DNA of 64,000 nt from Pseudomarimonas arenosa. Its GTDB lineage: Bacteria > Pseudomonadota > Gammaproteobacteria > Xanthomonadales > Xanthomonadaceae. A program made the translations under genes and the position numbers. The DNA is taken from the NCBI RefSeq assembly GCF_014841215.1, contig NZ_JACYTR010000019.1:14177-78176 (forward strand). The letters run 5' to 3'. Under the pieces are notes generated by a model. The model was given only the letters and a program-made list of their open reading frames with translations, did not search any database and was not told the origin of the DNA. Shown here in pieces: positions 1 to 43,465 of the stretch; positions within the stretch are counted from its first letter, which is position 1, and every line of letters begins with the position of its first letter.

Positions 1-1
1 G

Positions 2-1696
2 ACCGGTAAGTCGTTCTCCATGAAGGTCGCTCGTGAGGCCTGGGAAGCGCAAGGATTCAACGTGCGCGGCGCCGCCCTGGCGGGAAAGGCGGCCGATGAA
101 CTACAGGCGGGAAGCGGAATTCCAAGCCGAACGTTGGCCTCGCTGGAGTACGCCTGGAAAGAAGGTCGAGACAGGCTCAGTCGCAACGAAGTATTGGTAA
201 TCGACGAAGCGGGCATGATCGGTAGTCGGCAGCTCGGCCGTGTACTCAAAGCCGTGGAGATGGCGGGCGCAAAGGTCGTTCTGCTCGGAGACCACAAACA
301 GCTCGCAGCCCTTGAGGCAGGCGCTGCATTTCGCGCGATTGAGCAGCATGTCGGCGCAGCGCATATCACCGAAGTTCGCCGACAGCGTCATGCGTGGGCG
401 CGAGACGCCGGGCAATCCTTGGCGCGCGGCTCAACCGCAGAAGGACTGCGGGCCTATGACGAACGTGGTCACGTCCAAATGCTCGCAACTCGTGAAGCAG
501 CAAGGAGAGCGTTAGCCGTAGCCTACGCTGGTGACCGCGGCGAAGGCAGTCAGATAGTGCTTGCACACAGCAAGCGCGAAGTTCTGGCGCTCAATTCCTC
601 AATACGAGAAGTGCGGCAAGAACGAGGCGAACTGGCTGGCGCGGCTCGCTTTGCCGCAGAGTGCGGTGGTCGCGAGTTTGCCAGTGGCGACCGCATCGTG
701 TTCTTGCGAAATGATCGCGAGCTTGGCGTTAAGAACGGCACGCTCGGAACAATCGAGCATGCTCAGCATGACCTTCTTTCGGTTCGCCTTGACAGCGGCG
801 AGTCCCGTCAGGTGAACGCGGCGCAATATGCGGCAGTGGATTACGGCTACGCCGTCACGATTCATAAGGCGCAAGGGCTGACGGTTGAGCACACCTACTT
901 GCTCGCCACGCCAGGCATGGATCGCAGTTTGGCCTATGTCGGCATGACCCGACATCGCGAAAGCGCAACGATGTTCGCGGCCGTAGAAGACTTCGGAAGA
1001 AGAACCACGACAGAGGCCCGAGCGCGGTTGTTGCGCACGCTGGGGCGCGAACGCCCCAAGGAGACCACGCTCGACTTTGCTGCGAGGCGGGGTTTTGACG
1101 GCGAAAGTGTGCTTCAGCGGTGGATTGGGCGGAGCCGGACCAAGCTTGGCGAGCTGGCCAAGCGGGCACGGTTGGCACTTGGCCACGCCCTGGGAGCAGG
1201 CGGTTGGGACAGCTTGGAACCGCAGCGCCAGCCGGATGAAGAAGCTTTCAAGCGACTGTTGAGAGAGCGCGAGGCCGCGCTGCGAGTCCGTGCGGTGCGG
1301 ACCGCAAAAGCGCTCGAATCTCGGCGAGATGCCTTGCGCCAAACCAATCGCGCTCACCAGCTCGCGCGTCCTCAGGAGCCACGCGGCGTGGCTGCGCTGA
1401 AGCCTGGCGCAAGAGCGCAATACAACAGGCGCGTGGATTCCTGGGAGGAACAGCGCGAGCAGATAACGCGTCGGCAAATGGATATCCAGCGGCGATTGAA
1501 GGTTGCCGCCGAAGTGGCCAGCGGGCAATTCGAGGCGCGTCGGTTGGCAGAGGCAAAGACCAAACGTGAGCACTCAGTGCTGTGGCAACGAATGCAAGAG
1601 AGTCGGGCCGAACAGTTGAAGCAACGCGGCGCCGAAATTCGCAAGGAACTCGAGCTTCGGCTCCGCGGCCGTGATCGCGGCGGCCTCTCTCGTTAA
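2..1696 (+). CDS. Conjugative relaxase/helicase, TraA(Ti)/MobA-TrwC-like, C-terminal portion. 5' end lies outside the window: the frame is open from nt 2 and reads ..TGKSF.. (Walker A) at the very start.
   Basis: Translation shows an AAA_30/RecD-like helicase core (VLVIDEAGM, LLGDHKQL, YAVTIHKAQG) typical of TraA/TrwC relaxase C-terminal halves. Charged, coiled-coil tail. No in-frame stop before position 20. Confidence 0.75.
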   Translation, partial: TGKSFSMKVAREAWEAQGFNVRGAALAGKAADELQAGSGIPSRTLASLEYAWKEGRDRLSRNEVLVIDEAGMIGSRQLGRVLKAVEMAGAKVVLLGDHKQLAALEAGAAFRAIEQHVGAAHITEVRRQRHAWARDAGQSLARGSTAEGLRAYDERGHVQMLATREAARRALAVAYAGDRGEGSQIVLAHSKREVLALNSSIREVRQERGELAGAARFAAECGGREFASGDRIVFLRNDRELGVKNGTLGTIEHAQHDLLSVRLDSGESRQVNAAQYAAVDYGYAVTIHKAQGLTVEHTYLLATPGMDRSLAYVGMTRHRESATMFAAVEDFGRRTTTEARARLLRTLGRERPKETTLDFAARRGFDGESVLQRWIGRSRTKLGELAKRARLALGHALGAGGWDSLEPQRQPDEEAFKRLLREREAALRVRAVRTAKALESRRDALRQTNRAHQLARPQEPRGVAALKPGARAQYNRRVDSWEEQREQITRRQMDIQRRLKVAAEVASGQFEARRLAEAKTKREHSVLWQRMQESRAEQLKQRGAEIRKELELRLRGRDRGGLSR

Positions 1697-1727
1697 CGGC
1701 CACGTGGCCATTCAAAGGAGCAAAGAT

Positions 1728-1943
1728 ATGAGCAAGACCGAATCGACCCGCAACATGACGCCGGCACAGGCACGCAAGGCATTTTCAGAGGCAGCACGCT
1801 CGATGCCGCCGGAGGAAGCCAAGCGAATCGTATCGGGCGCCGTGCGGGCAGCTCGTCGGGCTCGCGCCGAACAGGCTCGCCGTAAGCAAGCCAACGCACG
1901 TTTTGTCGAGGCCTGGAATCGCGGCGCGGGGCTGGAGCGATGA
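1728..1943 (+). CDS. Small hypothetical protein (71 aa), basic and Ala/Arg-rich, in the element backbone
   Basis: ORF directly downstream of the relaxase. ATG at 1728 follows GGAG. Its stop overlaps the next ORF's start (ATGA at 1940). Confidence 0.35.
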   Translation: MSKTESTRNMTPAQARKAFSEAARSMPPEEAKRIVSGAVRAARRARAEQARRKQANARFVEAWNRGAGLER

Positions 1944-2179
1944 CGAGCACTTCGCTGGACGAGGGGCGGGCGGCAGCCCGGGAAGCCCGCTTTGCGCAGA
2001 GGCAACGATTGCTCGAAGAGCTGCGTCGATTGGGACGGTTCTACATCGATAACGAGAACGAAGATGCCCGCCTTGGAATGGAGGCTATGTGTGATGACTT
2101 CTTCCGATATCTCGCCCCAAGCATGTATCCGGGCGGCTGGCTGGGATTGCTTCAGCACGCGATGCGACAGGCAGGATGA
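1940..2179 (+). CDS. Small hypothetical protein (79 aa)
   Basis: Start-coupled to the previous ORF by ATGA overlap. No recognisable motif. Confidence 0.35.
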   Translation: MTSTSLDEGRAAAREARFAQRQRLLEELRRLGRFYIDNENEDARLGMEAMCDDFFRYLAPSMYPGGWLGLLQHAMRQAG

Positions 2180-2214
2180 CGCCCAGTGTCGCGCCGGTCA
2201 GCACTGCCAATGCA

Positions 2215-2255
2215 TCCGGAAAGAATATTAAAAACATATCAATAGGAGCCACAAT
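2215..2255 (+). promoter_or_regulatory. AT-rich promoter/RBS region upstream of parA
   Basis: gaaagaatattaaaaacatatcaataggagccacaatATG. A sharp AT-rich island in 65% GC DNA, with AGGAG 8 nt before the ATG. Confidence 0.4.
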
Positions 2256-2924
2256 ATGATTCTTACGATAGGCAATACGAAGGGCGGCGTCGGCAAGACC
2301 ACCCTGGCGGTACAGCTCGCAATAACTCGCGCCCTGGCCGGCCGCGAGGTGTGGCTGATCGACGGCGACCGCCAGGGCACCGCAACCGTCGCCATCGCCG
2401 CCCGGGCCGAGAACGGCCGGGCGCCCGGCATCGCCTGCGCCCAATACCCCGACGGCAGCATCCTGCGCACCCAGGTGCAGCAGCAGCGCGGCAAGTGGGA
2501 CGACATCGTGATCGACGCCGGCGGCCGCGACAGTACCGCCCTCCGCGCCGCCCTCACGCTGACCGACGTGCTGGTAGTCCCCTTTGCCCCGCGCAGTTAC
2601 GATGTCTGGGCCTTAGACGACATCGCCGCCCTGGTCGAAGAAGCCCGCAGCCTGCGCGACGGCCTGCAGGCGTTTGCTGTACTGAACCTCGCCGACCCCG
2701 GCGAGCTGTCCGCCGACAACGAAGAAGCCGCCGCGGCCGTTGCCGACGTGCCCCAGTTCGTCTACTTGCCCCAGCCGATCCGCCGGCGGAAAGCCTTCTC
2801 CAACGCCGGTGGCCAGGGCTGCTCCGTCCACGAACTCACCCCGCGCGACCCCAAAGCCTGTGTCGAATTGACCACGCTTGCGGAATCTGTTTTTAATATC
2901 CAAACGATAGCCTTCGCAAGGTAA
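2256..2924 (+). CDS. parA: ParA/Soj-family partition ATPase
   Basis: Deviant Walker A GNTKGGVGKTT at the N-terminus. Fits the about 210-aa ParA Ia plasmid-partition family. Confidence 0.9.
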   Translation: MILTIGNTKGGVGKTTLAVQLAITRALAGREVWLIDGDRQGTATVAIAARAENGRAPGIACAQYPDGSILRTQVQQQRGKWDDIVIDAGGRDSTALRAALTLTDVLVVPFAPRSYDVWALDDIAALVEEARSLRDGLQAFAVLNLADPGELSADNEEAAAAVADVPQFVYLPQPIRRRKAFSNAGGQGCSVHELTPRDPKACVELTTLAESVFNIQTIAFAR

Positions 2925-2929
2925 GGCCG

Positions 2930-3187
2930 ATGTCGATTCAACGTAAACCAAGGGTCACGGATGCGAAGGCGGAGGAGTTCATCGCCGGCGCGCCTGATGC
3001 GAGCGAGATCCCGGCGACCTACAGCAAGGGCATTCGGAAGGGGAACAAACGGCAAATCTCCCTGACGATTGCGCCTGAGTTGCTTCGGAAGGTGGACGAG
3101 GTCGCGAAGCGAACTGGCCAGGGCCGCGCGGGAATCATCAACATGGCGATTTACCGTGCCTTGGAGGGCGATGTATTCGCCTCGTAG
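2930..3187 (+). CDS. Ribbon-helix-helix (ParG/CopG-like) partition/centromere-binding protein
   Basis: 85-aa protein immediately after parA. C-terminal RHH-like segment (ISLTIAPELLRKVDEVAKRTGQGRAGIINMAIYRAL). Confidence 0.6.
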   Translation: MSIQRKPRVTDAKAEEFIAGAPDASEIPATYSKGIRKGNKRQISLTIAPELLRKVDEVAKRTGQGRAGIINMAIYRALEGDVFAS

Positions 3188-3281
3188 GCAAAAAGCCGCG
3201 GGGTTGCGAGGGCAAGATTGCTAAAGCAGATGGCGCAACTGCGGCGCCGACAAGAACAAGGGCCAGGGAGCGGGGCGCTGC

Positions 3282-5693
3282 ATGAGCATGAACGAGGCGG
3301 ATACTCGCTACCACCTCATTGATCCGGTGTTGCGCGAGAAGGGTTACGTCAGCCGCGACCGCATTACGCTGGAAACGGTGCTCACGCCTCCGCCTGTAGA
3401 ACCGAGTGGCCCCAAGGGACGCCGCCGCAATGGACCGGGCCGCACCGACTACTTGTTGTGCGTGCAAGTCGGCGATGCACCGAGGCCCATGCCGGTTGCC
3501 GTGCTGGAAGCCAAGAAGGAAGCCGAAGACCCCTTGAAGGGCATGCAGCAGGCCAGAGGCTATGCGGATACGCTGCGCTTTGACGTCAAGTACGTGTTCT
3601 CGACCAACGGACACCGATATGGCGAATATGATCGGTTCACTCAACTGATTAACGGCCCGTCTCCGTTTTGCGATTTCCCCTCGCATCCGGATCTGACCGC
3701 ACGCTACTGCCAGGACACGGGTATTGACCTGGGTCGATCGGCGTCCGCCATGCTGTTTCAGGCCGACAGCCCCGCGTGGGCCGAAAGTCGCTACTACCAA
3801 GATGCCGCGATCCGCGCCGCGTTCGAGAAGATCATTAGTGACGGCCAGGCCGGCAAGGCGCCGCGGGCGCTGCTCTCGCTAGCCACTGGCGCCGGCAAGA
3901 CCATTATCGCCACCAACTTGCTTTGGCGGCTATCCCAGGCCGGACAGTTGCCCAAACCCGCTTTGTTCCTTTGCGATCGTGATGAGTTGCGAGGGCAAGC
4001 CTACACCAAGCTCAAGGCCGCATTCGGCGACAACGCCCGCATCGTGCGCAGCGAGCGCGGCGGCAATGCGGCGGCCAACGCCCGCATCCACATCGCCACC
4101 TACCAAACGCTGGGCTTGGACGATGAAGAAGGCTTCGCCAGCTTCCTGACCGAGCACTACGGGGAAGACGCTTTCAGCGTCATCATCATCGACGAGTGCC
4201 ACCGTTCGGCCTGGGGCCGATGGTCTGAGGTGCTGCGGCGCAACCCCAGTGCCATCCACATCGGCCTGACCGCCACGCCGCGCAAGCTGGAGGAGTCCGA
4301 CAAGGCCTCGAAGGAAGACCAGGAGATCACGGCCAACAACCGGCAGTACTTCGGCGAGCCGGTGTACGAGTACACCCTGATCCAGGCCCAGGAGGACGGT
4401 TACCTGGCCGCCTGCGAGATCGTGAAACGAAAGGCGAGCATCGATAGCGCCACCTTCACGAAGAAGGAGATCCTGGCCGCTGGCGTCAAGGACATCAAGA
4501 CAGGCATGCCGCTAACCGAAGAAGACCTGGCCAAGGACGAATACACCGGCAAGGACTTCGACGACGAGCTCTTCATCGAGCTGCGCACACCCAAGATGTG
4601 CGCCGACCTGTTCGAGCTGCTGCGCGAGAACGGCGGGCCGGAACAGAAGGTCATCATCTTCTGCACCCGCGAGATTCATGCTGACCGCGTCGCTCAGCAC
4701 ATGAACAACCTGTACGTGCGCTGGTGCAAGGAGCGGGGCCACACGCCCAAGGACCACTACGCCTTCAAGTGCATGGGCGGCGCTAACAACGGCGCCAACA
4801 TGATCGAGCCGATGCGCGGCTCGGGCGAGCGCGCCTTCATCGCGTGCACCGTGGACCTGTTGGAGGCCGGCGTCGACATCGAGCGGCTGAACGCCGTGGT
4901 GTTCTTCCGCTACCTGCAATCCTCGATCAAGTTCTACCAGATGGTCGGGCGCGGCACGCGCATTCACGAAGAGACGCAGAAGTACAAGTTCTGGCTCTAT
5001 GACTACACCGACGTCACGAGCCTCTTCGGTACCGACTTCATCACCAAGCCTCCGCGGCCCGGAAGTGGCGGCAGCGGCAACGGAGAAGGTGGTGGTGGAA
5101 CCGGCGGTGAAGAAGACAATGGTCCGCGAGTCGCTGAGATCAGCGGCCAGTACGTAACGGTGAACGCCCAGGGGCACTTCATCCTCAGCCGCCGCGATGG
5201 GCGCGACACGCCGATCCCGGTGGACGAATACCGGCGCGAGGTGATTCAGCGCGTGATTGCCGAAGCGCACAACCTCGACGAGTTCCGCGCGCTGTGGATC
5301 GAAACCCAGAAGCGTCGCAGCCTCATCGACCACCTGCTGGGTGACAACTTCAGCCCCGAGGTGATTCGCGAGATTGACCAGATGACCGACTTCGACCTCT
5401 ATGACTTCTTCGGCCACCACGGCTACCACGCCCGCGCCCTGCGGCGCCCCGAGCGTGGGGATCTGTTCATCCGTAGTCAACAGCCATGGTTCGACGGCAT
5501 GGACCCCAAGGCCGCCATCGTGCTGAGGGGCCTGGGCCACCAGTTCGCGGCGGGCGGCACCGATGCGCTGGAAACGCCGGCGCTTTGGGAGGTGCCGGAG
5601 ATCATGATGGCCGGTGGCCTGGATGCGCTGCGTGGGCTCGGCAAGCCCATGGACGTGATGCGCGAGGCGAAGGGAAGGTTGTTCGGGGTATGA
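3282..5693 (+). CDS. hsdR: Type I restriction enzyme R subunit (HsdR)
   Basis: N-terminal HSDR_N signature (NEADTRYHLIDPVL). SF2 helicase motifs: motif I ATGAGKT, motif II IIIDECHR, helicase C. Followed by hsdS and hsdM. Confidence 0.9.
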   Translation: MSMNEADTRYHLIDPVLREKGYVSRDRITLETVLTPPPVEPSGPKGRRRNGPGRTDYLLCVQVGDAPRPMPVAVLEAKKEAEDPLKGMQQARGYADTLRFDVKYVFSTNGHRYGEYDRFTQLINGPSPFCDFPSHPDLTARYCQDTGIDLGRSASAMLFQADSPAWAESRYYQDAAIRAAFEKIISDGQAGKAPRALLSLATGAGKTIIATNLLWRLSQAGQLPKPALFLCDRDELRGQAYTKLKAAFGDNARIVRSERGGNAAANARIHIATYQTLGLDDEEGFASFLTEHYGEDAFSVIIIDECHRSAWGRWSEVLRRNPSAIHIGLTATPRKLEESDKASKEDQEITANNRQYFGEPVYEYTLIQAQEDGYLAACEIVKRKASIDSATFTKKEILAAGVKDIKTGMPLTEEDLAKDEYTGKDFDDELFIELRTPKMCADLFELLRENGGPEQKVIIFCTREIHADRVAQHMNNLYVRWCKERGHTPKDHYAFKCMGGANNGANMIEPMRGSGERAFIACTVDLLEAGVDIERLNAVVFFRYLQSSIKFYQMVGRGTRIHEETQKYKFWLYDYTDVTSLFGTDFITKPPRPGSGGSGNGEGGGGTGGEEDNGPRVAEISGQYVTVNAQGHFILSRRDGRDTPIPVDEYRREVIQRVIAEAHNLDEFRALWIETQKRRSLIDHLLGDNFSPEVIREIDQMTDFDLYDFFGHHGYHARALRRPERGDLFIRSQQPWFDGMDPKAAIVLRGLGHQFAAGGTDALETPALWEVPEIMMAGGLDALRGLGKPMDVMREAKGRLFGV

Positions 5694-6934
5694 ACGAAGC
5701 AACATCGACGCCTCCATTCCCGCGTAGGCTTGTCCGAATCTCGGACGTGGCCGCGACTGCCAGCGGGACGACTCCGTCGAGGGATCAGAGTCGCTACTGG
5801 AAGCCCGCAGAGATCCCGTGGGTAAAGACCGGGGAAATCCACTTCGCCCCGATTCGAAGGACAGAAGAAGCCGTATCAAGAATCGCACTCGACGAGTGCT
5901 CGCTACCGCTTCTCCCGCCGGGCACCGTGCTGGTGGCGATGTACGGTCAAGGCAAAACGCGAGGCCAATCTGCTGTTCTTGAGATCGAAGCAACAACAAA
6001 CCAAGCGTGCTTCGCGGTTTTGCCGACTGAAGCGTTCGCACCTGAATACCTTCAGTACTGGTTCCAATTCTCGTACTCGACGCTTCGTCAGTCGTCGGAA
6101 GGGAGGGGCGGAAACCAGGCGAACTTGAACAGCGAAATCCTGGGCAACCTCGAAGTGCCGTGGGTTGAGAGGGAAGAACAGCTCCGAATCGCTGCTCGCC
6201 TTCATGCCCAGCTTGCCGACGCGGAAACCGTTCGACGAGCTGCTCAGGCGCAACGCGAGTCTGCCGAGGCCCTTGTGGCCGCGATCTACCGCGAAGCCTT
6301 CGCGCAAGTGGTGCCCGTGGCTGTACCGCCGGCGTTTGACGAACCGCCACCCGGGTGGCAGTGGCGCAAACTCACCGACGTGGCACGACTCGAAAGTGGC
6401 CATACCCCGAGCCGGTCGCGATCAGACTGGTGGGGCGGTGATGTGTCGTGGATCTCGCTGACCGAAATTCGTGCCCTGGATGGCCAGTGGGTCGAAAGCA
6501 CGCAACTGCGTACCAACGCAGCGGGTATCGCCAATTCGGCAGCGCGAATCCTGCCGCGTGGGACGGTGTGCTACTCGCGCACGGCATCCGTGGGCTTCGT
6601 GGTCATCATGGCCAAGCCCATGGCAACGAGTCAGGACTTCGCAAACTGGGTGTGTGGCGATGCCCTCGACCCGGAGTTCCTGATGCACGCGCTCATCCGT
6701 GCCCGCAAGGAACTGCGTGACCTCGCCACTGGCGCGACGCACAAGACGATCTACATGCCGACGCTGGAATCCTTCCGCGTCTGCGCGCCCGATATCGACG
6801 CCCAGCGCCGCATCGTCCGCGGCCTCAAGCAGCGCTTGGAGGAGGCATCAGCCCTACGCGCTGCGCTGGATGCACAGCAGGCAGAACTAGCGAAGCTGCC
6901 CCAACGCCTGCTCGCCCAAGCCTTCGAGAACTAA
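5690..6934 (+). CDS. hsdS: Type I R-M specificity subunit (HsdS), about 414 aa
   Basis: ATG at 5690 overlaps the hsdR stop (ATGA). The N-terminal and central regions read as two target-recognition-domain-like halves. Sits between hsdR and hsdM. The 5486 upstream start in the ORF track is an in-frame read-through of the hsdR 3' end. Confidence 0.8.
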   Translation: MNEATSTPPFPRRLVRISDVAATASGTTPSRDQSRYWKPAEIPWVKTGEIHFAPIRRTEEAVSRIALDECSLPLLPPGTVLVAMYGQGKTRGQSAVLEIEATTNQACFAVLPTEAFAPEYLQYWFQFSYSTLRQSSEGRGGNQANLNSEILGNLEVPWVEREEQLRIAARLHAQLADAETVRRAAQAQRESAEALVAAIYREAFAQVVPVAVPPAFDEPPPGWQWRKLTDVARLESGHTPSRSRSDWWGGDVSWISLTEIRALDGQWVESTQLRTNAAGIANSAARILPRGTVCYSRTASVGFVVIMAKPMATSQDFANWVCGDALDPEFLMHALIRARKELRDLATGATHKTIYMPTLESFRVCAPDIDAQRRIVRGLKQRLEEASALRAALDAQQAELAKLPQRLLAQAFEN

Positions 6935-6936
6935 AC

Positions 6937-8865
6937 ATGGCCCGACCCAAGAAGACCGACAAAGCCCCCAAGGCCATCGCCAGCACCCAATCGCTCTCGG
7001 CCTTCGTCAAGAGCATCTGCGACGTGATGCGCCGCTCGAACTGCGCGAGTGCGCTGCAGTACGTGCCGGAGCTGACCTGGATCTTGTTCCTGCGCATCCT
7101 CGACGCGCAGGAGGTGCGCGACCAGGAGAAGGCCGAAGCCGTGGGCGCGACTTTCATGCCAGCACTGCGCGCGCCGTACCGCTGGCAGGACTGGGCGGCG
7201 CCCCCGCCGAAGAATGAATCCGACAAGCCCGGGCACCCGAAGACACCTGAGGGCAAGCCCTTCGGCTGGAAGCGGCAGGAACTGTTTGCGGCCGGCGACG
7301 GCAAGCTGTTCGACTTCATCAACAAGGAACTGCTGCCCCACCTGCACAGCCTGGACGTGGACCCGCGCACCAACCTGCCTATGCCCGGCGCCACGCCGAA
7401 GCAGCGCATCATCGGCCGCACGATGACAGCGGTGGAGCGCGTGCGTGTGGACTCCGAGACCAACCTACGCGACATCCTCGACAAGGTGCACGAGATCAGC
7501 GTCGACCACATCGACGACCAGCACTTCTTCACGCTGTCGCAGGTATACGAGGACCTGCTGCTGAAGATGGGCGAGAAGAACTCCGACGGTGGCCAGTTCT
7601 TTACCCCGCGCGAGGTGATCCGCGCGATGGTGCACACGGTGGACCCCCAGCTCGGGCAGACGGTGTACGACCCCTGCTGCGGCACCGGCGGTTTCCTCGC
7701 CATCGCTTACGAGCACATCAATCGCAAGCTGGGGACGCAGGCCCGCAGCACCGACATTGACGCGCTCAAGCACGATACCTTCTTCGGCCGCGAGAAGGAG
7801 AACCTGGTGTTCCCCATCGCGCTAGCCAACCTGGTGCTGCACGGCATCGACCAGCCCAACCTGTGGCACGGTAATTCGCTGACGCGGCGTGCCACCTACG
7901 GCGCGCTGTTCGACAAGGCCCCCAAGCTGTTCGACGTGATCCTGACCAACCCGCCCTTCGGCGGCAAAGAAGGCAAGGACGCGCAGAAGAACTTCGCGTT
8001 CGAGACCAGCGCCACGCAGGTGCTGTTCGTGCAGGACATCCTCGCCGAACTGGCGCCGGGCGGCACCTGCGCCATCGTGCTGGACGAGGGCCTGCTGTTC
8101 CGCACCAACGAGAGTGCCTTCGTTGAGACCAAGCGCAAGCTGGTGGACGAGTGCGAGCTGTGGGCCATCCTCAGCTTGCCGGGCGGCGTGTTCTCCACCG
8201 CCGGCGCGGGCGTCAAGACCAACCTGCTGTTCTTCACCAAAGGCCGCAAGACCGAGCGCATCTGGTACTACGACCTGTCGCAGGTAAAGGTGGGCAAGAA
8301 GACGCCGCTGACCCTGGCGCATTTCGGCTTCGCCCCGGATGGCTCGGTGCTGAACGATGCCGCGCTGCCCGCCGCGCTGGTCGCTGACTGGCAGGCCGAT
8401 GAAGCCAACAAAGGCAAGCCCTTCCCGAGCTACGCCCGCCAGCTGGCGCGGCGCGGCACGCCGGAGGCCGACAGCCGCTGGTCCTGGACGGTCGACTTCG
8501 CCGCCCGCCGCGCCAAGGCGAGCGAGGAGATGCAGCCCCTGCTCGATGACGCCGCCAAGCTCAAGGCCGAGGTGGTGGACCTCAAGGAGCAGTTGAAGCG
8601 CCTGAAGAAGGAGAAGGCTGCCGATGACGTGCTGGAAGCGCACGATGCAAAGATCCGCGAGAAGGACAAAGCGGCGCGTGAACTTGAATCACAAGCTGCT
8701 GCCATCGATGCAGCGGTGTTCGATCTGAAAGCCGTCAATCCGAACACGGTAGCGACCGTGGACAAGCGAACGCCGGCGGAAATCATCGACAGCATCGAAT
8801 CGCACGGTAGGTTGGTCAGCGATGCCTTGGCCCGGCTGCGAAATCTGTTGCGCGAGGCGGCGTGA
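6937..8865 (+). CDS. hsdM: Type I R-M N6-adenine DNA methyltransferase subunit (HsdM), with a C-terminal coiled-coil extension
   Basis: N6_Mtase motifs: NPPFGG, and the SAM-binding stretch DPCCGTGGFL. C-terminal 100 aa is Lys/Glu-rich coiled coil. Confidence 0.9.
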   Translation: MARPKKTDKAPKAIASTQSLSAFVKSICDVMRRSNCASALQYVPELTWILFLRILDAQEVRDQEKAEAVGATFMPALRAPYRWQDWAAPPPKNESDKPGHPKTPEGKPFGWKRQELFAAGDGKLFDFINKELLPHLHSLDVDPRTNLPMPGATPKQRIIGRTMTAVERVRVDSETNLRDILDKVHEISVDHIDDQHFFTLSQVYEDLLLKMGEKNSDGGQFFTPREVIRAMVHTVDPQLGQTVYDPCCGTGGFLAIAYEHINRKLGTQARSTDIDALKHDTFFGREKENLVFPIALANLVLHGIDQPNLWHGNSLTRRATYGALFDKAPKLFDVILTNPPFGGKEGKDAQKNFAFETSATQVLFVQDILAELAPGGTCAIVLDEGLLFRTNESAFVETKRKLVDECELWAILSLPGGVFSTAGAGVKTNLLFFTKGRKTERIWYYDLSQVKVGKKTPLTLAHFGFAPDGSVLNDAALPAALVADWQADEANKGKPFPSYARQLARRGTPEADSRWSWTVDFAARRAKASEEMQPLLDDAAKLKAEVVDLKEQLKRLKKEKAADDVLEAHDAKIREKDKAARELESQAAAIDAAVFDLKAVNPNTVATVDKRTPAEIIDSIESHGRLVSDALARLRNLLREAA

Positions 8866-10823
8866 TTGTGACTGACCAGCCCATCCAAAACTCCCTGTTC
8901 GAGGAAGACTATCTTCTGCGCGAGCTCGGGCAAGTCGCGCATGTGCCGCAGGTTGCACTCACCGAGTTGGTCGCCAACGCATGGGACGCAGGGGCATCCA
9001 AGGTCGACCTGATTCTGCCCGATCACCTCGACGGAACTCTGACCGTGACCGACGACGGGCACGGTATGACACCGGAGCAATTCAAGAAGCGCTGGATGAC
9101 GTTGCGCTATGACCGCCTCCGCCATCAGGGCGCTAACGTCGAGTTTCCGCGTGGTCGGAATGCGCGGCCACGTCGGTCATACGGCCGCAACGGCGTAGGA
9201 CGACATGGCTTGTTGTGCTTCGCCGACGAGTACCAGGTGGAAACCTGGCGTGACGGTGTGTTAGCTACCTTTGTCGTCGGCACAGAGTCGGGGCCGAGCC
9301 CTTTTGTTCTGAGAAGCGAAACCCTCGGGCGATGCGAAGGAAGCGGTACGCGGCTCTCGGTCAGCGTGACGCGCAACCTACCCGATGCCTACGAAATCTT
9401 GACCGTACTGGCCGCTCGCTTCGTTCACGATCAAGAGTTCGAGATTCGCGTCAATGGCGCCCAGAGGTCTTTCAACGAGATTGAAGGCCGAGTCAGCGAG
9501 GAAACGTTGGTGCTAGGCCACGGCCGGACCGCCAAGGTAACCGTGATCGACTCGACCCACGTGAATCACTCGTCGGTGCACCAGGGTATCGCTTTCTGGG
9601 TGCAGGGACGACTGGTCGGCTCGCCATCTTGGACCATCGGGCAGGTCGCAAGCTTCGATGGACGAACACGTTTTGCGCGCCGCTACAAGGTCATCGTCGA
9701 CACTCAAGGGTTCGAGTCCGACGTTGAGCAGGATTGGACGGCGTTTCGTGCAACGGAGGATGTTCGAGACCTGCATCGAGCGACCGCTGAGCATATCGGC
9801 AAAGTGGCGCAGGACCTCGCATCATTTGTTGTCGAGGCGGCATCCGAGGACGCGCTAACACAAAACCGAGCGGAGCTCGCCTCACTTGGGCAAGGCGCCC
9901 GGCTTGAAGTCGCCGAATTCACCAAGGTCGTCGCCCAAGAACACCCAACGATTTCGCCCGACTTTCTGGCTACCGCCGTCAAGGCCGTTATCAATCTGGA
10001 ACGAACCAAGAGCGGCGCGGCGTTGCTGCAGAAGCTGTCTTCATTGCCGCCTGACGACGTCGACGGGCTCGATCGCCTACTCACCGAGTGGTCGATCAAG
10101 GACGCGCTTCGTGTTCTCGACGAGATCGACAGTCGAATCAGTGTGATTGAAACCATTCAGCGCTTGGCTGATGACCCGCACACCGACGAGCTTCATACGC
10201 TGCACCCACTGATTCTTCGCTCGCGATGGTTGTTTGGGCCTGAATTCGAGTCGCATGAATATTGTTCGAACGTCACGTTGAAGTCGGTGGCGCGCGAGCT
10301 TTTCAAGAGCACTGAAGCTCAGTTCATCAATGAACGACAGCGTCCCGACATTGTTGTGCTGCCTGACAAGACCACGTGGCAGATGACGGGCATCGAATCC
10401 TTCAATCCTGCAGATCCAACGCTCACGCAGATTCAGAACGTACTTGTTATTGAGCTCAAGAAGGGCGGATTCGAGCTAACGCGCAAGGAAGTGAACCAAG
10501 CTGACGGTTACGTGCAAGACATTGCTCAATCTGGTGCGATGTCAGGCGCGCCGCACGTTTGTGCTTGGGTAGTGGGGCAGACGATCGGGGCGGGCGTAGA
10601 GCGCGATAAACGGCTCGGCAATCCAGAATATGGTCGGGTCCGAGCTGCCACATTCGCCTGGTTGGTGGACACGGCAAACGCTCGACTGCTTCGACTGCGG
10701 ACTGTGCTGGCAGACCGCTATGGCGGCGCAACTACAGACGGTCTACTCAATCGCGTCCTCTCCTCACATCCGCAGATGGACTTAACATATCGTCAGGGTG
10801 TTGCGAATGTCGGCATTAAATAG
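8862..10823 (+). CDS. GHKL/HATPase_c (MORC-like) ATPase, N-terminal, fused to a C-terminal PD-(D/E)xK-like region; defence-associated, function unknown
   Basis: Bergerat-fold N-box and G1 box (ELVANAWDAGAS ... DDGHGM) in the first 70 aa. C-terminal D...(E/V)xK-like pattern (RPDIVVLPD ... VLVIELKKGG). GTG start overlaps the hsdM stop (GTGA). Confidence 0.65.
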   Translation: MIVTDQPIQNSLFEEDYLLRELGQVAHVPQVALTELVANAWDAGASKVDLILPDHLDGTLTVTDDGHGMTPEQFKKRWMTLRYDRLRHQGANVEFPRGRNARPRRSYGRNGVGRHGLLCFADEYQVETWRDGVLATFVVGTESGPSPFVLRSETLGRCEGSGTRLSVSVTRNLPDAYEILTVLAARFVHDQEFEIRVNGAQRSFNEIEGRVSEETLVLGHGRTAKVTVIDSTHVNHSSVHQGIAFWVQGRLVGSPSWTIGQVASFDGRTRFARRYKVIVDTQGFESDVEQDWTAFRATEDVRDLHRATAEHIGKVAQDLASFVVEAASEDALTQNRAELASLGQGARLEVAEFTKVVAQEHPTISPDFLATAVKAVINLERTKSGAALLQKLSSLPPDDVDGLDRLLTEWSIKDALRVLDEIDSRISVIETIQRLADDPHTDELHTLHPLILRSRWLFGPEFESHEYCSNVTLKSVARELFKSTEAQFINERQRPDIVVLPDKTTWQMTGIESFNPADPTLTQIQNVLVIELKKGGFELTRKEVNQADGYVQDIAQSGAMSGAPHVCAWVVGQTIGAGVERDKRLGNPEYGRVRAATFAWLVDTANARLLRLRTVLADRYGGATTDGLLNRVLSSHPQMDLTYRQGVANVGIK

Positions 10824-10876
10824 CGACTTCCGACCTTGGCTTGTTGACTTGGCTCAGATGACGGCCGAGGTGGTGC

Positions 10877-11530
10877 ATGGCTAACCACTATGCCAGCCTG
10901 AATCCGGACAAAGCACTGATTTGGCGTATTGTCCATGCTGACAATCTCTCATGGATACTCGATAACGGCTTGCACTGTGGCAACGGCGGTGTGGTCGCGC
11001 CAGGGTGGGTGAGCATCGGGAATCCAGAGCTGATTGATAAGCGCGCCAACCACCCCGTGCCGGTGCCTCCCGGTGGCTGCCTTAATGATTATGTGCCCTT
11101 CTATTTCACCCCGTTCTCTCCGATGCTGCGCAACATCAACACCGGATGGGGCGGAGTTCAGAAGCGGCCCAACGACGAGATATTGATTCTTGTTTCAAGC
11201 TTGCGCCACGTTGCAGAGCAAGGGTGGCCGTTCCTATTTACGGACAGTCACGCCTATTACCTGTGGGCCAATTTCTACTCAGAACTGACAGATTTGGACA
11301 AAGTCGATTGGCCTCTGCTGCAGGCGCGGGATTTTCGACGTGATCCGGATGATCCCGCCAAGTTCGAGCGTTATCAGGCGGAGGCCTTGGTATATCGGCA
11401 CTTGCCGATTAGTGGCCTGCTTGGCATTGTGTGCTACACCGATCAGGTAAAGCGCGCTGTTGAGGATCAGCTCGGGCGAAGAAACCTAAGCCTGCCTGTC
11501 CATGCTCGCGCCGGATGGTACTTCCGATGA
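10877..11530 (+). CDS. darT: DarT, ssDNA ADP-ribosyltransferase toxin (DUF4433)
   Basis: Strong matches to the DarT core: [36 protein letters not shown]-terminal GWYF. About 217 aa. Followed by a macrodomain gene with ATGA overlap. Confidence 0.9.
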
Positions 11531-12597
11531 TTACATTCACCCAAGGCAATCTGCTGGAGGCCCGCGTCGAGGCGCTGGTCAATACCGTCAACACTGTCGG
11601 CGTGATGGGCAAGGGCATAGCGCTCATGTTCAAGGAGCGATTCGCTGAGAACTTTCGCCTCTACGCTGCAGCCTGCAAAGCCAACGAGGTGCAGGTTGGA
11701 AAAATGTTCATCACTCCTGTCAGTGAATTGGACGGCCCGCGGTGGATTGTTAATTTTCCGACCAAACAACATTGGCGTGGTGATTCCAAGATTGAATGGA
11801 TCATTGAGGGTTTGCAGGATCTCCGGCAATTCGTGACGAGTAGTCAGATCAAGTCCATTGCCATTCCTCCACTGGGCGCGGGAAACGGCGGATTGGAATG
11901 GGCCGAAGTCAGAGCCCAGATCGAGGAAGTGCTTGCTGGCTTGGATAGCGAGATTCTCGTATTTGAGCCGACGCAAAAGTACCAAAACGTGGCCAAACGA
12001 GCGGGCGTAGAGAAGCTGACCCCGGCGCGCGCGCTAATCGCTGAAGTGGTGCGTCGATACTGGGTGCTCGGCATCGATTGCAGCATGCTGGAGATCCAGA
12101 AGCTGGCTTGGTTTCTGGAACGCAATATTGAGCGAATGGGGCTCCAGCCGCTTGATCTGCGCTTCGTGCCCCACAAGTATGGTCCCTACGCCGATCGGCT
12201 GCGCCATTTGTTGAACGGGCTGGATGGGAGCTACTTGCACTGCGACAAACGAGTAGGGGATGCCGATCCTCAAGACGTTATCTGGTTCGATGACGCGCGC
12301 AAGGCGGTGGTCCAGGCCTATCTCAAGAGCGAGGCAAAGGAATACGCTGCAGCATTGGAGGCCACTTCAACACTGATTGATGGCTTCGAGTCTCCTTTTG
12401 GTTTGGAGTTGCTTGCGACAGTGGATTGGCTATTAAAGGAGGGGGTATCACCGACCGTCTCTGCGGTCAGTTCGGGCTTGCGAGATTGGAGTGGTGATCC
12501 GGAGGCAGCGGAACGTAAGGTTAGGTTGTTCAACGAACGGGCGCTGAGCGTTGCGCTCAATCGCCTCGCGCCAAGCGCAACCGCTGCGGCAACTTGA
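11527..12597 (+). CDS. darG: DarG, macrodomain ADP-ribosyl-DNA glycohydrolase antitoxin with a C-terminal DarT-binding domain
   Basis: N-terminal macrodomain motifs ([20 protein letters not shown] ... [13 protein letters not shown]). About 356 aa. ATG at 11527 overlaps the darT stop. Confidence 0.85.
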
Positions 12598-12760
12598 TTC
12601 GGGCGAGACGCGGTTGGTGGCGGTGCAGCAGCGGTACACAGCTCAGTTCGACCCGGTTCGGCCAACCTTCGCTAAGCTTCTGATTTCAAACTACTTTCGG
12701 CTTCCGCTCCCTTCGCTCACCTTCGCTTGTTTTTCAGTACCTTACTGATTTCCAAGCGAA

Positions 12761-12805
12761 CTCATAATCCTTTGGTTCCAGGTTCGAATCCTGGTGGGCC
12801 CACCA
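12761..12805 (+). mobile_element. Orphan 3' fragment (about 45 nt) of a tRNA with a CAU anticodon, from the anticodon loop through T-arm, acceptor 3' strand and CCA. Probable attR direct repeat of the integrated element.
   Basis: CTCATAATCCTTTGGTTCCAGGTTCGAATCCTGGTGGGCCCACCA. T-arm CCAGG-TTCGAAT-CCTGG, acceptor 3' strand TGGGCCC, discriminator A, CCA. No complementary 5' acceptor strand (GGGCCCA) upstream, so not a complete gene. Confidence 0.5.
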
Positions 12806-13026
12806 ATCCGCTGAGTCTCATGGCGCGGGTATTCGATGGCACGTGCAATACCGCTGCCGGGCGAGTTCAACACAGCAATCCTGCCAATGCCAAGCGGGTG
12901 GTCAACGCCGTGCACAGCACACAAAGCCCGAATCTTGCCGCTGATTCGCCCCAGCAGTCGACACGGTGCCCAGCCATCAACTGATTGACGGCGATGCAGG
13001 CTTGTGTAAACATACGCGGCTCTGTT

Positions 13027-13103
13027 GGCTATGTAGCTCAGCCGGTTAGAGCACGGCACTCATAATGCCGGGGTCGGTGGTTCGAGTCCACCCATAGCCA
13101 CCA
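13027..13103 (+). tRNA. tRNA-Met (anticodon CAT), elongator-type
   Basis: GGCTATGTAGCTCAGCCGGTTAGAGCACGGCACTCATAATGCCGGGGTCGGTGGTTCGAGTCCACCCATAGCCACCA folds as a canonical cloverleaf. Very similar to E. coli tRNA-Met (metT). A Lys-tRNA-Ile2 is not excluded. Confidence 0.85.
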
Positions 13104-13233
13104 ACAGATCCAGCTGCCTAAGCAGCCAGCCGCACAACCTCGCCTTGCGCGGGGTTTTGTGTTTTTGGCGTCAGCGCATGGTCGTCTGATCCGCGTTTCG
13201 AGGCGTTGCACGAGATGGCGAACTCCGGGCTAG

Positions 13234-15423
<2,190 letters not shown>

Positions 15424-41334: not shown

Positions 41335-43389
41335 TTGGAGTCAAGCATGGACATGACCACTTTGATGCTCATCATTACCGTCGGCGGCGTGATCGTTGCC
41401 GGCGTGTTGAGTCTCTTTGCCATCCTGAAGATGTTCTACATCAAGGTGCCGCAGGGTACCGCGCTGATCGTCAACGATCTGACCGCCACGCCGAAGGTGC
41501 ATTTCACCGGTGCCCTGGTCTGGCCGGTGATCCACAAAAAGGAGTTCATGAAGATCTCCTTGATCACCCTGGAGGTCGATCGGCGCGGCAAGGATGGCCT
41601 GATCTGCCGCGACAACATGCGCGCCGATATCACCGTTGCCTTCTATCTGCGGGTGAATGAGACCCAGCAGGACGTGCTGAAGGTGGCCAAAGCCATCGGC
41701 GTCGATCGCGCCTCGGAAAAGAACGCGGTCAATGAACTGTTCAACGCCAAGTTCAGTGAGGCGCTGAAGACGGTCGGCAAGAAGATCGACTTCGTTGCCT
41801 TGTTCGAGAACCGGCAGGAATTCCGTGACCGCATCATCGAGGTGATCGGCAACGATTTGAACGGTTACATCCTGGAAGACGTGGCGATCGATTATCTGGA
41901 GCAGACGCCGAAGTCCTCGCTGGATCCGAACAATATTCTCGATGCCGAAGGCATTCGCAAGATCACCGAGCTCACCGCCACCCAGAACGTGGTGACCAAT
42001 GAGTTGGAGCGCAACAAGGAACTGGCGATCCAGAAGAAGAACGTCGAGACCAAGGAATCGATGCTGGCATTGGCGCGTCAGCAGGCCGATGCCGAAGCCA
42101 AGCAGCAGCGTGAGATCGCCACCATCCAGGCGCGCGAATCGGCCGAGACCCTGCGCGTGCAGGAAGAAGAGCGGCTGAAGGCCGAACAGGCGCGCATCGC
42201 CACCCAGGAACAGCTCGATATCCGTGAGCAGAATCGGATGCGTGAAGTTGAAGTGGCTGAGCAGAACCGCCAGCGCGCCGTGGTGATCGAGATCGAAAAG
42301 GTCGCCCGCGCCAAGGCACTGGAAGAAGTCGCCCGCGAACGCGAAGTCGAACTGCAGCGGATCGAGAAAGAGCGCGCCCTGGAAGAGCAGCGCAAGGAAA
42401 TTGCCAATGTCATCCGCGAGCGGGTGGTGGTCGAAAAATCGGTGGCAGTGGAAGAAGAGCGGATCAAGGAAGTGCGCGAAATCTCCGAAGCCGAGCGCCT
42501 GAAGCAGGTCACCATTCTTGATGCCCAGGCCAAGGCAGAGGAAGAGCTGGTTAAGCAGGTCAAGCAGGCCGAAGCCGACGAAGCCAAGGCCAAGCACAAG
42601 TCGGTCGAGATCACCATCCTGGCTCAGGCCGAACTGGAAGCCGCCGGCAAACAGGCCGAAGCCAAGCGCAAGCTGGCCGAAGGTATCGAGGCCGAGCGTG
42701 CCGCGCCGGGCCTGGCCGATGCGCGGGTGCGCGAAGTGACCGCGGCGGCGATGGAAAAGGAAGGTCTGGCCAAGGCCAAGGTGATCGCCGAGCAAATGGC
42801 GGCCGAGGCGCGCGGCGAGCAGGACAAAGGTGTGGCCCAGGCCAATGTGATCGAGGCGCAGGCCGAAGCGCGGCGCAAGGAAGGTCTGGCCGAGGCCAAG
42901 GTGCTGGAAGAAAAGCTGAGCGCGCAGGCGCGGGGCGAGGAACAGGTCGCGCTGACCAAGGCCAAGGCCACCCAGGAGGTCGGCAATGCCGAGGCGGCGG
43001 TGCTGCTGGCCAAGTTCGAAGCCGAGGCCAAGGGTCTGGCGGAGAAGTTCGGCTCGCTGGAAGCGCTCAGCGACAAGGCGCGCGCCCACGAAGAGTTCCG
43101 CATGCAGCTGGAAAAGACCTTCGAGCAGACCGTGCGCGGCATCGAGGCGAACGAAAAGATCGCCCGCGAACAGGCCGATGTGCTGGCCGCCGCGCTCAGC
43201 AAGGCCAAGGTCGACATCGTGTCCGGCGGCGGCGACTACTTCAACAGCCTGGCCCGCGGCATGGGCATGGGCAAGATGGTCGAGGGCGTGACCGGCTCCA
43301 GTCCGATCGTCGGTGACCTGCTGCAGCGCTTTCTGGGCAACACCCCGAAGAAGCCGGAAGCGCCGTCGGCTAACGATACCGAGCAGTAA
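41335..43389 (+). CDS. Flotillin/SPFH (band-7) family protein, YqiK-like
   Basis: N-terminal TM. SPFH domain. Long Ala/Glu/Lys/Arg coiled-coil region (EA-repeat-like) typical of flotillins. Confidence 0.85.
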   Translation: MESSMDMTTLMLIITVGGVIVAGVLSLFAILKMFYIKVPQGTALIVNDLTATPKVHFTGALVWPVIHKKEFMKISLITLEVDRRGKDGLICRDNMRADITVAFYLRVNETQQDVLKVAKAIGVDRASEKNAVNELFNAKFSEALKTVGKKIDFVALFENRQEFRDRIIEVIGNDLNGYILEDVAIDYLEQTPKSSLDPNNILDAEGIRKITELTATQNVVTNELERNKELAIQKKNVETKESMLALARQQADAEAKQQREIATIQARESAETLRVQEEERLKAEQARIATQEQLDIREQNRMREVEVAEQNRQRAVVIEIEKVARAKALEEVAREREVELQRIEKERALEEQRKEIANVIRERVVVEKSVAVEEERIKEVREISEAERLKQVTILDAQAKAEEELVKQVKQAEADEAKAKHKSVEITILAQAELEAAGKQAEAKRKLAEGIEAERAAPGLADARVREVTAAAMEKEGLAKAKVIAEQMAAEARGEQDKGVAQANVIEAQAEARRKEGLAEAKVLEEKLSAQARGEEQVALTKAKATQEVGNAEAAVLLAKFEAEAKGLAEKFGSLEALSDKARAHEEFRMQLEKTFEQTVRGIEANEKIAREQADVLAAALSKAKVDIVSGGGDYFNSLARGMGMGKMVEGVTGSSPIVGDLLQRFLGNTPKKPEAPSANDTEQ

Positions 43390-43397
43390 TGCTTAAA

Positions 43398-43425
43398 GCC
43401 CCTCTCCCCCGCCAGGGGGAGGGGC
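43398..43425. repeat. REP-like GC palindrome GCCCCTCTCCCCCGCCAGGGGGAGGGGC
   Basis: Imperfect 11 to 12-bp-stem hairpin in the flotillin/giant-gene intergenic region. The same core motif recurs within each unit of the 55988-56550 tandem array. Confidence 0.45.
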
Positions 43426-43465
43426 TAGAGCTTGAGCAAGTCCGGACCACGGAGTGCTACCCCGC

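Follow-up and report, generated by a model that had tools for sequence, protein, structure and literature searches.

The window analysed here, a stretch of 64,000 nucleotides from Pseudomarimonas arenosa CAU 1598 (earlier named Pseudoxanthomonas sp. CAU 1598), carries six intact plus-strand genes that fill positions 3282 to 12597. These are hsdR, hsdS and hsdM of a Type I restriction-modification (RM) system, a gene for a GHKL ATPase with a C-terminal nuclease domain, and the toxin-antitoxin pair darT and darG. A preliminary description of this block took its gene order to suggest a layered defence operon. The reading preferred here is another one, to which we give a probability of about three in four: the block would be a composite defence island made of two mobile modules joined end to end, with separate histories, rather than a co-evolved six-gene unit. 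As delimited by DNA homology, the first module is the RM system (window ~3243–8807), the second is the GHKL-DarT-DarG trio (8869–12582), and the two are joined within the last ~60 nt of hsdM.

Evidence for two modules

The two parts of the block differ in composition, as G+C content at third codon positions is 0.82 in hsdR and 0.885 in hsdM, versus 0.656 in the GHKL gene, 0.63 in darT and 0.64 in darG. Each part also recurs elsewhere without the other. DNA homology to the metagenome locus L031, which holds a relative of the RM system, covers window positions 3243–5693 (87%) and 6936–8807 (93%), and ends ~60 nt before the hsdM stop. In Dyella sp. M7H15-1 (L035), collinearity with the window extends over 8869–12582 at 73–74% DNA identity, that is, from the exact GHKL start to 15 nt before the darG stop. 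The Dyella genes, arranged as GHKL-darT::IS-darG (IS, insertion sequence), are flanked by an outer-membrane-efflux gene and by waaA, and no RM system is present. Two metagenome contigs complete the picture: L039 carries GHKL-darT-darG alone, while L038 reads hsdM-hsdS-hsdR-GHKL-darT-darG, and all three trio genes of both are 79–85% identical to those of the window at the amino-acid level. It is because of these differences in composition and this separate recurrence that the block is read as two modules. No description of the GHKL-DarTG linkage was found in the literature searched. When the whole block was compared with plasmids by megablast, the only match was a 10% patch in a Meiothermus hsdM.

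The Dyella locus also holds a remnant of ~50 nt (L035 6430–6488) between a terminator and the GHKL start. This remnant corresponds to the 3′ end of the open reading frame (ORF) upstream of the GHKL gene in a Mesorhizobium metagenome-assembled genome (L001 784–843), which suggests that the Dyella cassette, when it was imported, brought along a fragment of the neighbour it once had upstream.

Gene layout

The block opens with hsdR (3282–5693, plus strand like all that follow), which encodes an EcoAI/EcoEI-like Type I restriction subunit. It continues with hsdS (5690–6934), for a specificity subunit with two target-recognition domains, and hsdM (6937–8865), for an N6-adenine methyltransferase subunit with a long, probably helical C-terminal tail. 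The GHKL gene (8868–10823) is predicted to encode an ATPase domain, a middle domain, a helical region and a C-terminal nuclease of restriction-endonuclease fold, in a paraMORC3-like architecture. The last two genes, darT (10877–11530) and darG (11527–12597), encode a DNA ADP-ribosyltransferase toxin and a macrodomain ADP-ribosylglycohydrolase antitoxin. From hsdR to darG the intergenic gaps are, in order, −4, 2, 2, 53 and −4 nt. The coordinates thus bear out the tight boundaries of the preliminary description, with its ATGA overlaps at hsdR/hsdS and darT/darG and its 2-nt gap at hsdS/hsdM. Profile, structure and motif evidence likewise upholds the identities it gave to all six genes, including the GHKL-nuclease, which had been a guess. 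One boundary had to be revised: the GTGA overlap proposed for hsdM and the GHKL gene would need a start at GTG 8862. Because the starts of 20 homologous genes align with GTG 8868, and because the NCBI protein has 651 aa, a 2-nt gap is likely at this junction, the overlap being the lesser option.

Since the gaps from hsdR to the GHKL gene are of 2 nt or less, these four genes are probably co-transcribed from upstream of hsdR, as far as spacing can tell. The 53 nt between the GHKL gene and darT leave room for a separate darTG promoter.

The Type I restriction-modification module

HsdR contains ResIII, SWI2_SNF2, Helicase_C and EcoEI_R_C domains and matches the PADLOC model REase_I (261 bits). 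Its best NCBIfam match, nearly full length, is the EcoAI/FtnUII family NF046051, at 396 bits and so below the cutoff of 550. The motifs D56...E76-x-K78, ATGAGKT201 (Walker A) and DECH304 are intact, and profiles and motifs together identify the superfamily 2 (SF2) helicase motor and the PD-(D/E)xK nuclease of a Type I subunit. HsdS has two Methylase_S stretches (PADLOC Specificity_I, 301 bits), and its gene is contiguous with hsdR and hsdM, as is expected of a two-domain Type I HsdS. HsdM matches N6_Mtase (181 bits), HsdM_N and, over its full length, PADLOC MTase_I PDLC03036 (1193 bits), and its intact motifs DPCCGTG245 and NPPF338 are those of a gamma-class N6-adenine methyltransferase.

Two traits that had been noticed as special to this locus are in fact those of its family. 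The HsdM tail, earlier described as a coiled coil of about 100 aa, is borne out in rough terms: the protein extends ~180 aa past the methyltransferase domain, and residues 535–601 form a stretch of 67 residues free of Pro and Gly, rich in K and E, and with L/V spaced 4-3-4-3. This tail is however kept in 120 homologues (85–95% identity), and the HsdM family at that level of identity, always ~640–650 aa long, has spread widely, with members in Burkholderiales, Achromobacter, Variovorax, Nitrospira and others. The order R-S-M, correctly reported, is likewise no local rearrangement, an explanation rejected because the order is common to all close relatives. HsdR is 86–91% identical to the HsdR of L031, L033 and L034, and HsdM 86–94% identical to that of R-S-M systems in Achromobacter, Variovorax and metagenomes; the HsdS target-recognition domains diverge (31–78% identity), as expected. 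Among annotated sequences, the nearest relatives share this order: it recurs on a Carboxydocella plasmid, and a Meiothermus plasmid has R...PDDEXK-S-M. These comparisons indicate that R-S-M order and a long HsdM tail are traits of a widespread RM family.

What follows hsdM differs from one relative to the next. The metagenome loci L031 and L032 read HTH_17-R-S-VapBC-M-JetABCD, with VapBC placed between hsdS and hsdM. In Variovorax (L034) the arrangement is HTH_17-R-S-M-JetABCD, with a DarTG pair upstream on the opposite strand, and in Achromobacter (L033) it is HTH_17-R-S-M, with nothing after hsdM. Judged from these alignments, what lies 3′ of hsdM varies, and the slot holds Wadjet or nothing in the relatives and GHKL-DarTG here.

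Two details of the relatives deserve mention. The Wadjet system (JetABCD) of L031 (10974–17767), L032 and L034 (10974–17767) is complete and starts 26 nt past hsdM. All RM relatives also have a gene of 69 aa, of the HTH_17 family, that overlaps the hsdR start and is absent from the window.

The GHKL-nuclease

Pfam recognizes only HATPase_c_3 in the GHKL protein, over residues 30–135. A HMMER search of the whole library gave 301 cluster representatives (50% identity clusters) at E≤1e-30, mostly of ~640 aa, and 50 of them, 27–69% identical to the query, were aligned. GHKL motifs I–IV are invariant in these 50 sequences (E33/N37/D40, D62xGxG66, G106...G111-R112 and G160-T161). The C-terminal part shows little or no variation at R492-P493-D494, E529-L-K531, Q544 and Y548, and a nearly invariant E459 completes an E-D-ExK signature. 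The AlphaFold model (pLDDT, the model's own confidence score, 83) divides into a GHKL domain, a middle domain rich in beta structure, a long stretch of helices and a C-terminal domain of the alpha/beta type. With Foldseek, the N-terminal two thirds align to Hsp90/TRAP1 and MORC2-4 over ~370–445 columns (E 1e-12 to 1e-15), but with a TM score of only ~0.27–0.3. The C-terminal domain has a restriction-endonuclease fold with E-D-ExK, as in paraMORC3.

The paraMORC3 proteins of proteobacteria and bacteroidetes, whose genes often stand alone, were defined as GHKL plus S5 plus a restriction-endonuclease fold with E-D-ExK (Iyer, Abhiman and Aravind, 2008; PMC2292703). VcSduA, named “Shedu type I-D,” loses defence when either its ATPase (E27A) or its nuclease (K557A) is mutated, protects in a non-abortive manner, and acts on its own in E. 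coli (Adams et al., 2025; PMC12137116). From its motifs and its predicted fold, the GHKL protein appears to have this same paraMORC3/VcSduA (Shedu I-D) architecture. On the sequence level, its membership in Shedu, tested with DUF4263 and PADLOC, came out negative. DUF4263 (PF14082) does not match the full protein, nor any of 24 diverse C-terminal domains at E≤1. PADLOC returns only two REase_II models for the full-length protein, both over the GHKL domain, and weak PDC-S41, PDC-S02 and Cas4 matches for the 24 C-terminal domains, each in at most two members, with no Shedu/SduA family in either search. Sequence searches of the PDB with the protein and with a C-terminal profile gave weak GHKL matches or noise such as Lsm3.

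The contexts of the gene were followed in a set of 20 homologue loci (L001–L019 and L026). It most often directly follows the last gene of another Type I RM family, whose components are ~30% identical to those of the window, in the arrangements R-M-S-GHKL and R-M-YhcG-S-GHKL. Longer versions are R-M-S-AAA_21-HNH-GHKL (L019) and R-M-S-AAA_15-GHKL-DUF4357-DarT-DarG (L017). Distant homologues on alphaproteobacterial plasmids stand alone among other defence genes, and no DarTG was found adjacent to them.

Several observations on these loci can be added. Eleven of the 20 loci (within L002–L019 and L026, at locus coordinate ~10001) have a GHKL gene that starts ATG-NCT-GAN, and in these same 11 the upstream gene, be it hsdS or an unrelated GmrSD, stops at the embedded TGA, 8 nt into the GHKL gene. 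An islet of the form tRNA-Leu-integrase-GmrSD-GHKL is found in Yersinia, Rahnella and Photorhabdus (L007, L008, L009 and L015; ~6400–11940), although the GHKL ORF of L015, from Yersinia pestis NCTC5923, is a truncated one of 373 aa. In L017 a PDC-S14/DUF4357 candidate defence gene (11962–12885) sits between the GHKL gene and the distant DarTG, making a longer stack of the same kind.

The DarTG pair

DarT is assigned by PF14487 (175 bits) and by NF048013 (253 bits for a cutoff of 150), as expected of the DUF4433 family, and its best PDB match is the Thermus DarT 7omv (E 2e-28), with a Glu aligned to the mutated E160A position. DarG matches NF048014 (434 bits for a cutoff of 250). Its macrodomain aligns to 5m31 and 5m3i, with an E of 4e-51 for Thermus aquaticus DarG (5m31) and Lys80 in NFPTKQHWR, and it also matches M. 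tuberculosis DarG, while the C-terminal half aligns to 7yk3_B, the fragment with which that protein binds DarT. The gene order is that of DarTG, darT lying directly upstream of darG with an ATGA overlap at 11527–11530. A report by Schuller et al. from 2023 is reportedly also a source of the criterion for the DarTG2 subfamily. The defining feature of this subfamily is a macrodomain antitoxin (PMC12255303). With a macrodomain rather than a NADAR antitoxin, a catalytic Lys and a DarT-binding C-terminal domain, all recognized by homology, the pair is assigned to DarTG2.

The insertion of DarTG into Type I RM operons is a general observation (Jankevicius et al., 2016; PMC5179494), and the stacking of DarTG on a Type I system, rightly noticed earlier in this block, is thus an already published pattern (PMC5179494; PMC12255303). 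It is reproduced among the 80 best DarG-related metagenome loci: 30 of them carry Type I genes, 24 with hsdR immediately downstream, which is the published embedded layout. Among the 44 with at least 2.2 kb of upstream sequence, 21 have Hsd genes. The close DarG relatives examined for context are 79–83% identical; apart from those in trios, they belong to DarTG pairs that come after a Type I RM system or lie inside one, with no GHKL gene. All components of the block belong to known types of defence, and the way they are combined agrees with the published association.

Another appended layout, with other filler genes, is seen in Pseudoxanthomonas (L036 1421–11068), where hsdM-hsdS-Abi_C-hsdR-SH3_3 protein-darT-darG lies beside an integrase, near mnmE/yidC/rnpA/rpmH/dnaA.

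Probable mobile-element setting and flanking genes

The window opens with the 3′ part of traA (1–1696, plus strand), cut by the window edge and encoding a Ti-type relaxase/helicase that matches TIGR02768 TraA_Ti (492 bits, profile positions 392–751) and AAA_30. The frame is open from base 2; the C-terminal helicase part falls within the window and the relaxase domain proper outside it. Two small ORFs lead to parA (2256–2924, plus strand), for a partition ATPase matching Pfam CbiA/AAA_31 and NF041546 ParA_partition, the latter at 137 bits and so under the 180-bit cutoff. Five nt past parA starts a small ribbon-helix-helix (RHH)-like gene (2930–3187, plus strand), with a weak RHH_1 match (E=0.0075), whose product is a probable, ParG-like partner of ParA. 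ParA is 74% identical to the ParA found beside the RM-GHKL island of Comamonas faecalis (L003), and the RHH protein 43% identical to the ORF adjoining it there. From traA through darG, 11 genes follow each other in one orientation with small gaps.

On the other side of the block, positions 12761–12805 (plus strand) hold the 3′ half of a tRNA-Met gene, a candidate attachment (att) site and right end of the integrated element. Its 45 nt start at the anticodon loop, include a perfect T-arm and end with CCA, with the sequence CTCATAA...CCAGGTTCGAATCCTGG...CCA; an intact partner tRNA-Met gene should end in CTCATAATCCTTTGGTTCCAGGTTCGAATCCTGGTGGGCCCACCA. The fragment is present once in the window and is not called as a tRNA. 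A different, intact tRNA-Met lies at 13027–13103; as an integration target it was rejected, since it lies on the wrong side and its identity to the fragment is just 72%. Beyond it come the core genes uvrD, UPF0114, waaA, lipid A acyltransferase and O-antigen ligase. The placement of the block between transfer and partition genes (TraA, ParA, RHH) and a tRNA-Met fragment, as first described, is correct. In sequence terms, the island appears to sit at the distal end of a conjugative or mobilizable element that integrated into a tRNA-Met gene, and to call it the terminal cargo of an integrative and conjugative element (ICE) is plausible, the boundaries of the element being deduced.

Farther into the window, the region 41335–48652 ends with a gene (43454–48652) for a protein of 1732 aa that contains DUF3686 (“ATPase involved in DNA repair,” 670 bits) as well as DUF7902. 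Before this gene comes a 684-aa ORF without Pfam or PADLOC match, in a stretch whose AT skew is extreme (0.43 at 42–43 kb). Two ORFs of 797 aa, at 52115–54508 (plus strand) and 57950–60343 (minus strand), also lack any Pfam or PADLOC match and are mutually unrelated (BLASTP E 0.4).

Proposed mode of action and alternatives

Most likely, the three systems work independently of one another as successive layers, with restriction first, the nuclease second and abortive infection last. The HsdM2S complex would protect host DNA by methylation at the bipartite site that HsdS recognizes, while HsdR, with its SF2 motor and its PD-(D/E)xK nuclease, would move along incoming DNA that lacks this methylation and cut it. 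The GHKL-nuclease is presumably an ATP-controlled DNA nuclease that acts directly. DarT would then ADP-ribosylate thymidine in single-stranded DNA and block replication; the DarG macrodomain would reverse the mark and its C-terminal domain would sequester DarT, which amounts to a defence of the abortive-infection type.

Other arrangements of the same parts can be imagined. The GHKL-nuclease, DarT and DarG might form one functionally coupled system, in which the nuclease may act on ADP-ribosylated DNA or sense infection. The window, Dyella L035, L038 and L039 indeed all have the trio in collinear form, although their contexts are unrelated, the longest ORF in the GHKL frame runs 8 nt past the darT start in L038 and L039, a fifth locus (L017) has a GHKL gene followed, after one gene, by a distant DarTG, and such a linkage would be new to the literature searched. 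This coupling is nevertheless improbable: among the GHKL loci L001–L023, L026 and L118–L120 (genome, plasmid and Azonexus-type) DarTG is nearby only in L017, and the GHKL gene is found upstream in just 2 of the 80 DarG-related loci (L038 and L039), both among the closest relatives, for which one ancestral fusion event suffices. VcSduA and DarTG systems moreover each defend alone (PMC12137116; PMC12255303). In a bolder version, to which we also lend little credence, an undescribed mobile three-gene cassette would dock at the 3′ end of Type I RM operons that are not related to each other (R-S-M in the window and M-S-R in L038, with Dyella lacking any), its parts being possibly coupled; the nuclease could for example turn the reversible ADP-ribose marks left by DarT on phage DNA into breaks, or the cassette could be triggered once restriction is evaded. 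Alternatively, the nuclease might be an accessory subunit of the Type I system that assists or back-stops HsdR. Roles of paraMORCs in RM were predicted by Iyer et al. (2008; PMC2292703), the gene starts 2 nt past hsdM here, and in 10 of the 20 homologue loci it is co-oriented in one array with hsdR, hsdM and hsdS, usually right after hsdS with an 8-nt overlap. This seems improbable, however, since GHKL proteins of 70–85% identity follow unrelated partners (three different RM families, GmrSD, AAA_15 and HNH genes), or no defence gene at all, as in Dyella or on plasmids of Agrobacterium, Rhizobium and Azospirillum; Iyer et al. noted that paraMORC3 genes with a nuclease often stand alone (PMC2292703), and VcSduA is active by itself in E. 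coli (PMC12137116). Both kinds of coupling are disfavoured because the GHKL gene and DarTG mostly occur apart. As for class assignment, the GHKL protein does match Type II enzymes of the BbrUII/HgiDII kind (NF050001 restrict_BbrUII, 81 bits; PADLOC REase_II, 48 bits), and HsdM and HsdS match Mad2 and mad5. Both identities were rejected and are hardly credible: the former matches are confined to the GHKL domain, ~105 of ~660 profile positions, far under the 550-bit cutoff and with no cognate m5C methyltransferase present, while MAD2 scores 96 bits against a cutoff of 720, the Type I models score far higher, and no other mad genes are present.

Within the two-module reading itself, some points weigh against the setting and the operon structure proposed above. 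A consensus scan of 2800–13300 gave fewer promoter-like sites than in shuffles and terminator-like sites at chance level, with no informative signal inside the block, so that operon structure is supported neither way. No integrase, type IV secretion system or second att copy was found within the window, the tRNA fragment differs from the adjacent intact tRNA-Met, and the Dyella trio lies beside the same lipopolysaccharide-core gene, waaA, without an ICE, from which it follows that the trio need not have come as ICE cargo. In L003, the related ParA/RHH pair is on the opposite strand and at the other side of its island. The island could then be a separate islet, or an older tRNA-Met-integrated remnant, abutting a decayed TraA/ParA element. 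We hold this to be rather unlikely in view of the 11 co-oriented, closely spaced genes from traA to darG, of the absence of any repeat of the tRNA fragment between traA and hsdR, and of the orientation of that fragment, which fits the distal att of an element extending leftwards.

Significance

The locus opens no new category: it is an ordinary, well-resolved composite defence island. What is new are the module boundaries, the docking slot 3′ of hsdM, the conserved GHKL-DarTG trio, and a GHKL-nuclease family missed by DUF4263 and PADLOC. The block thus offers a natural example of defence-island assembly, with the junction between RM and GHKL-DarTG resolved to ~60 nt, in an RM family whose hsdM 3′ flank serves as docking slot for Wadjet in relatives and for GHKL-DarTG here. 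Since the GHKL-nuclease family, ~300 clusters with the VcSduA/paraMORC3 architecture, escapes both detection tools, defence finders probably under-count this class. If the trio did work as one coupled system, this would add a new mode to DarTG-based immunity.

Comparison with known systems

The RM module resembles the Type IB systems EcoAI and EcoEI by the EcoEI_R_C domain of HsdR and by its best NCBIfam match, EcoAI/FtnUII, but it differs in the score of that match, which is below the cutoff (396/550), in its R-S-M order and in its ~640-aa HsdM with a long, probably helical tail. The GHKL-nuclease is like paraMORC3 and VcSduA, the latter from the Vibrio cholerae WASA lineage, in its N-terminal GHKL motifs I–IV, its C-terminal PD-(D/E)xK domain with E-D-ExK, perhaps its middle domain, which may be Hsp90/MORC-like, its length of ~650 aa, its sporadic occurrence in proteobacteria and its location in defence islands; its relatives in Yersinia and Rahnella directly follow a GmrSD gene, just as VcSduA follows GrwAB (PMC12137116). 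DarTG shares with the DarTG2 pairs of Thermus and M. tuberculosis the DarT Glu, the DarG Lys80 and the DarT-binding C-terminal half of DarG, although host and context are different.

The closest parallel to the combination as a whole is the RRDM island of enteropathogenic E. coli (EPEC), which is composed of RptR, a Type I RMS, DarTG2 and an M48 peptidase (Zhang et al., 2025; PMC12255303), and for this kind of RM and DarTG combination protection against phage was shown experimentally (PMC12255303). Regulation of the RptR type was considered for the window and rejected, as no regulator gene and no TAGCTA sites lie upstream of hsdR; indeed there is no helix-turn-helix gene directly before hsdR, no TAGCTA in 1–9261, and no M48 peptidase. 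Both islands have in common an RM system and a macrodomain DarTG that are co-directional and lie in horizontally acquired DNA. In EPEC RRDM, however, DarTG is embedded between hsdS and hsdR, whereas here it is appended after the whole of an RM system that belongs to a different family, in R-S-M order, with the GHKL-nuclease gene in between.

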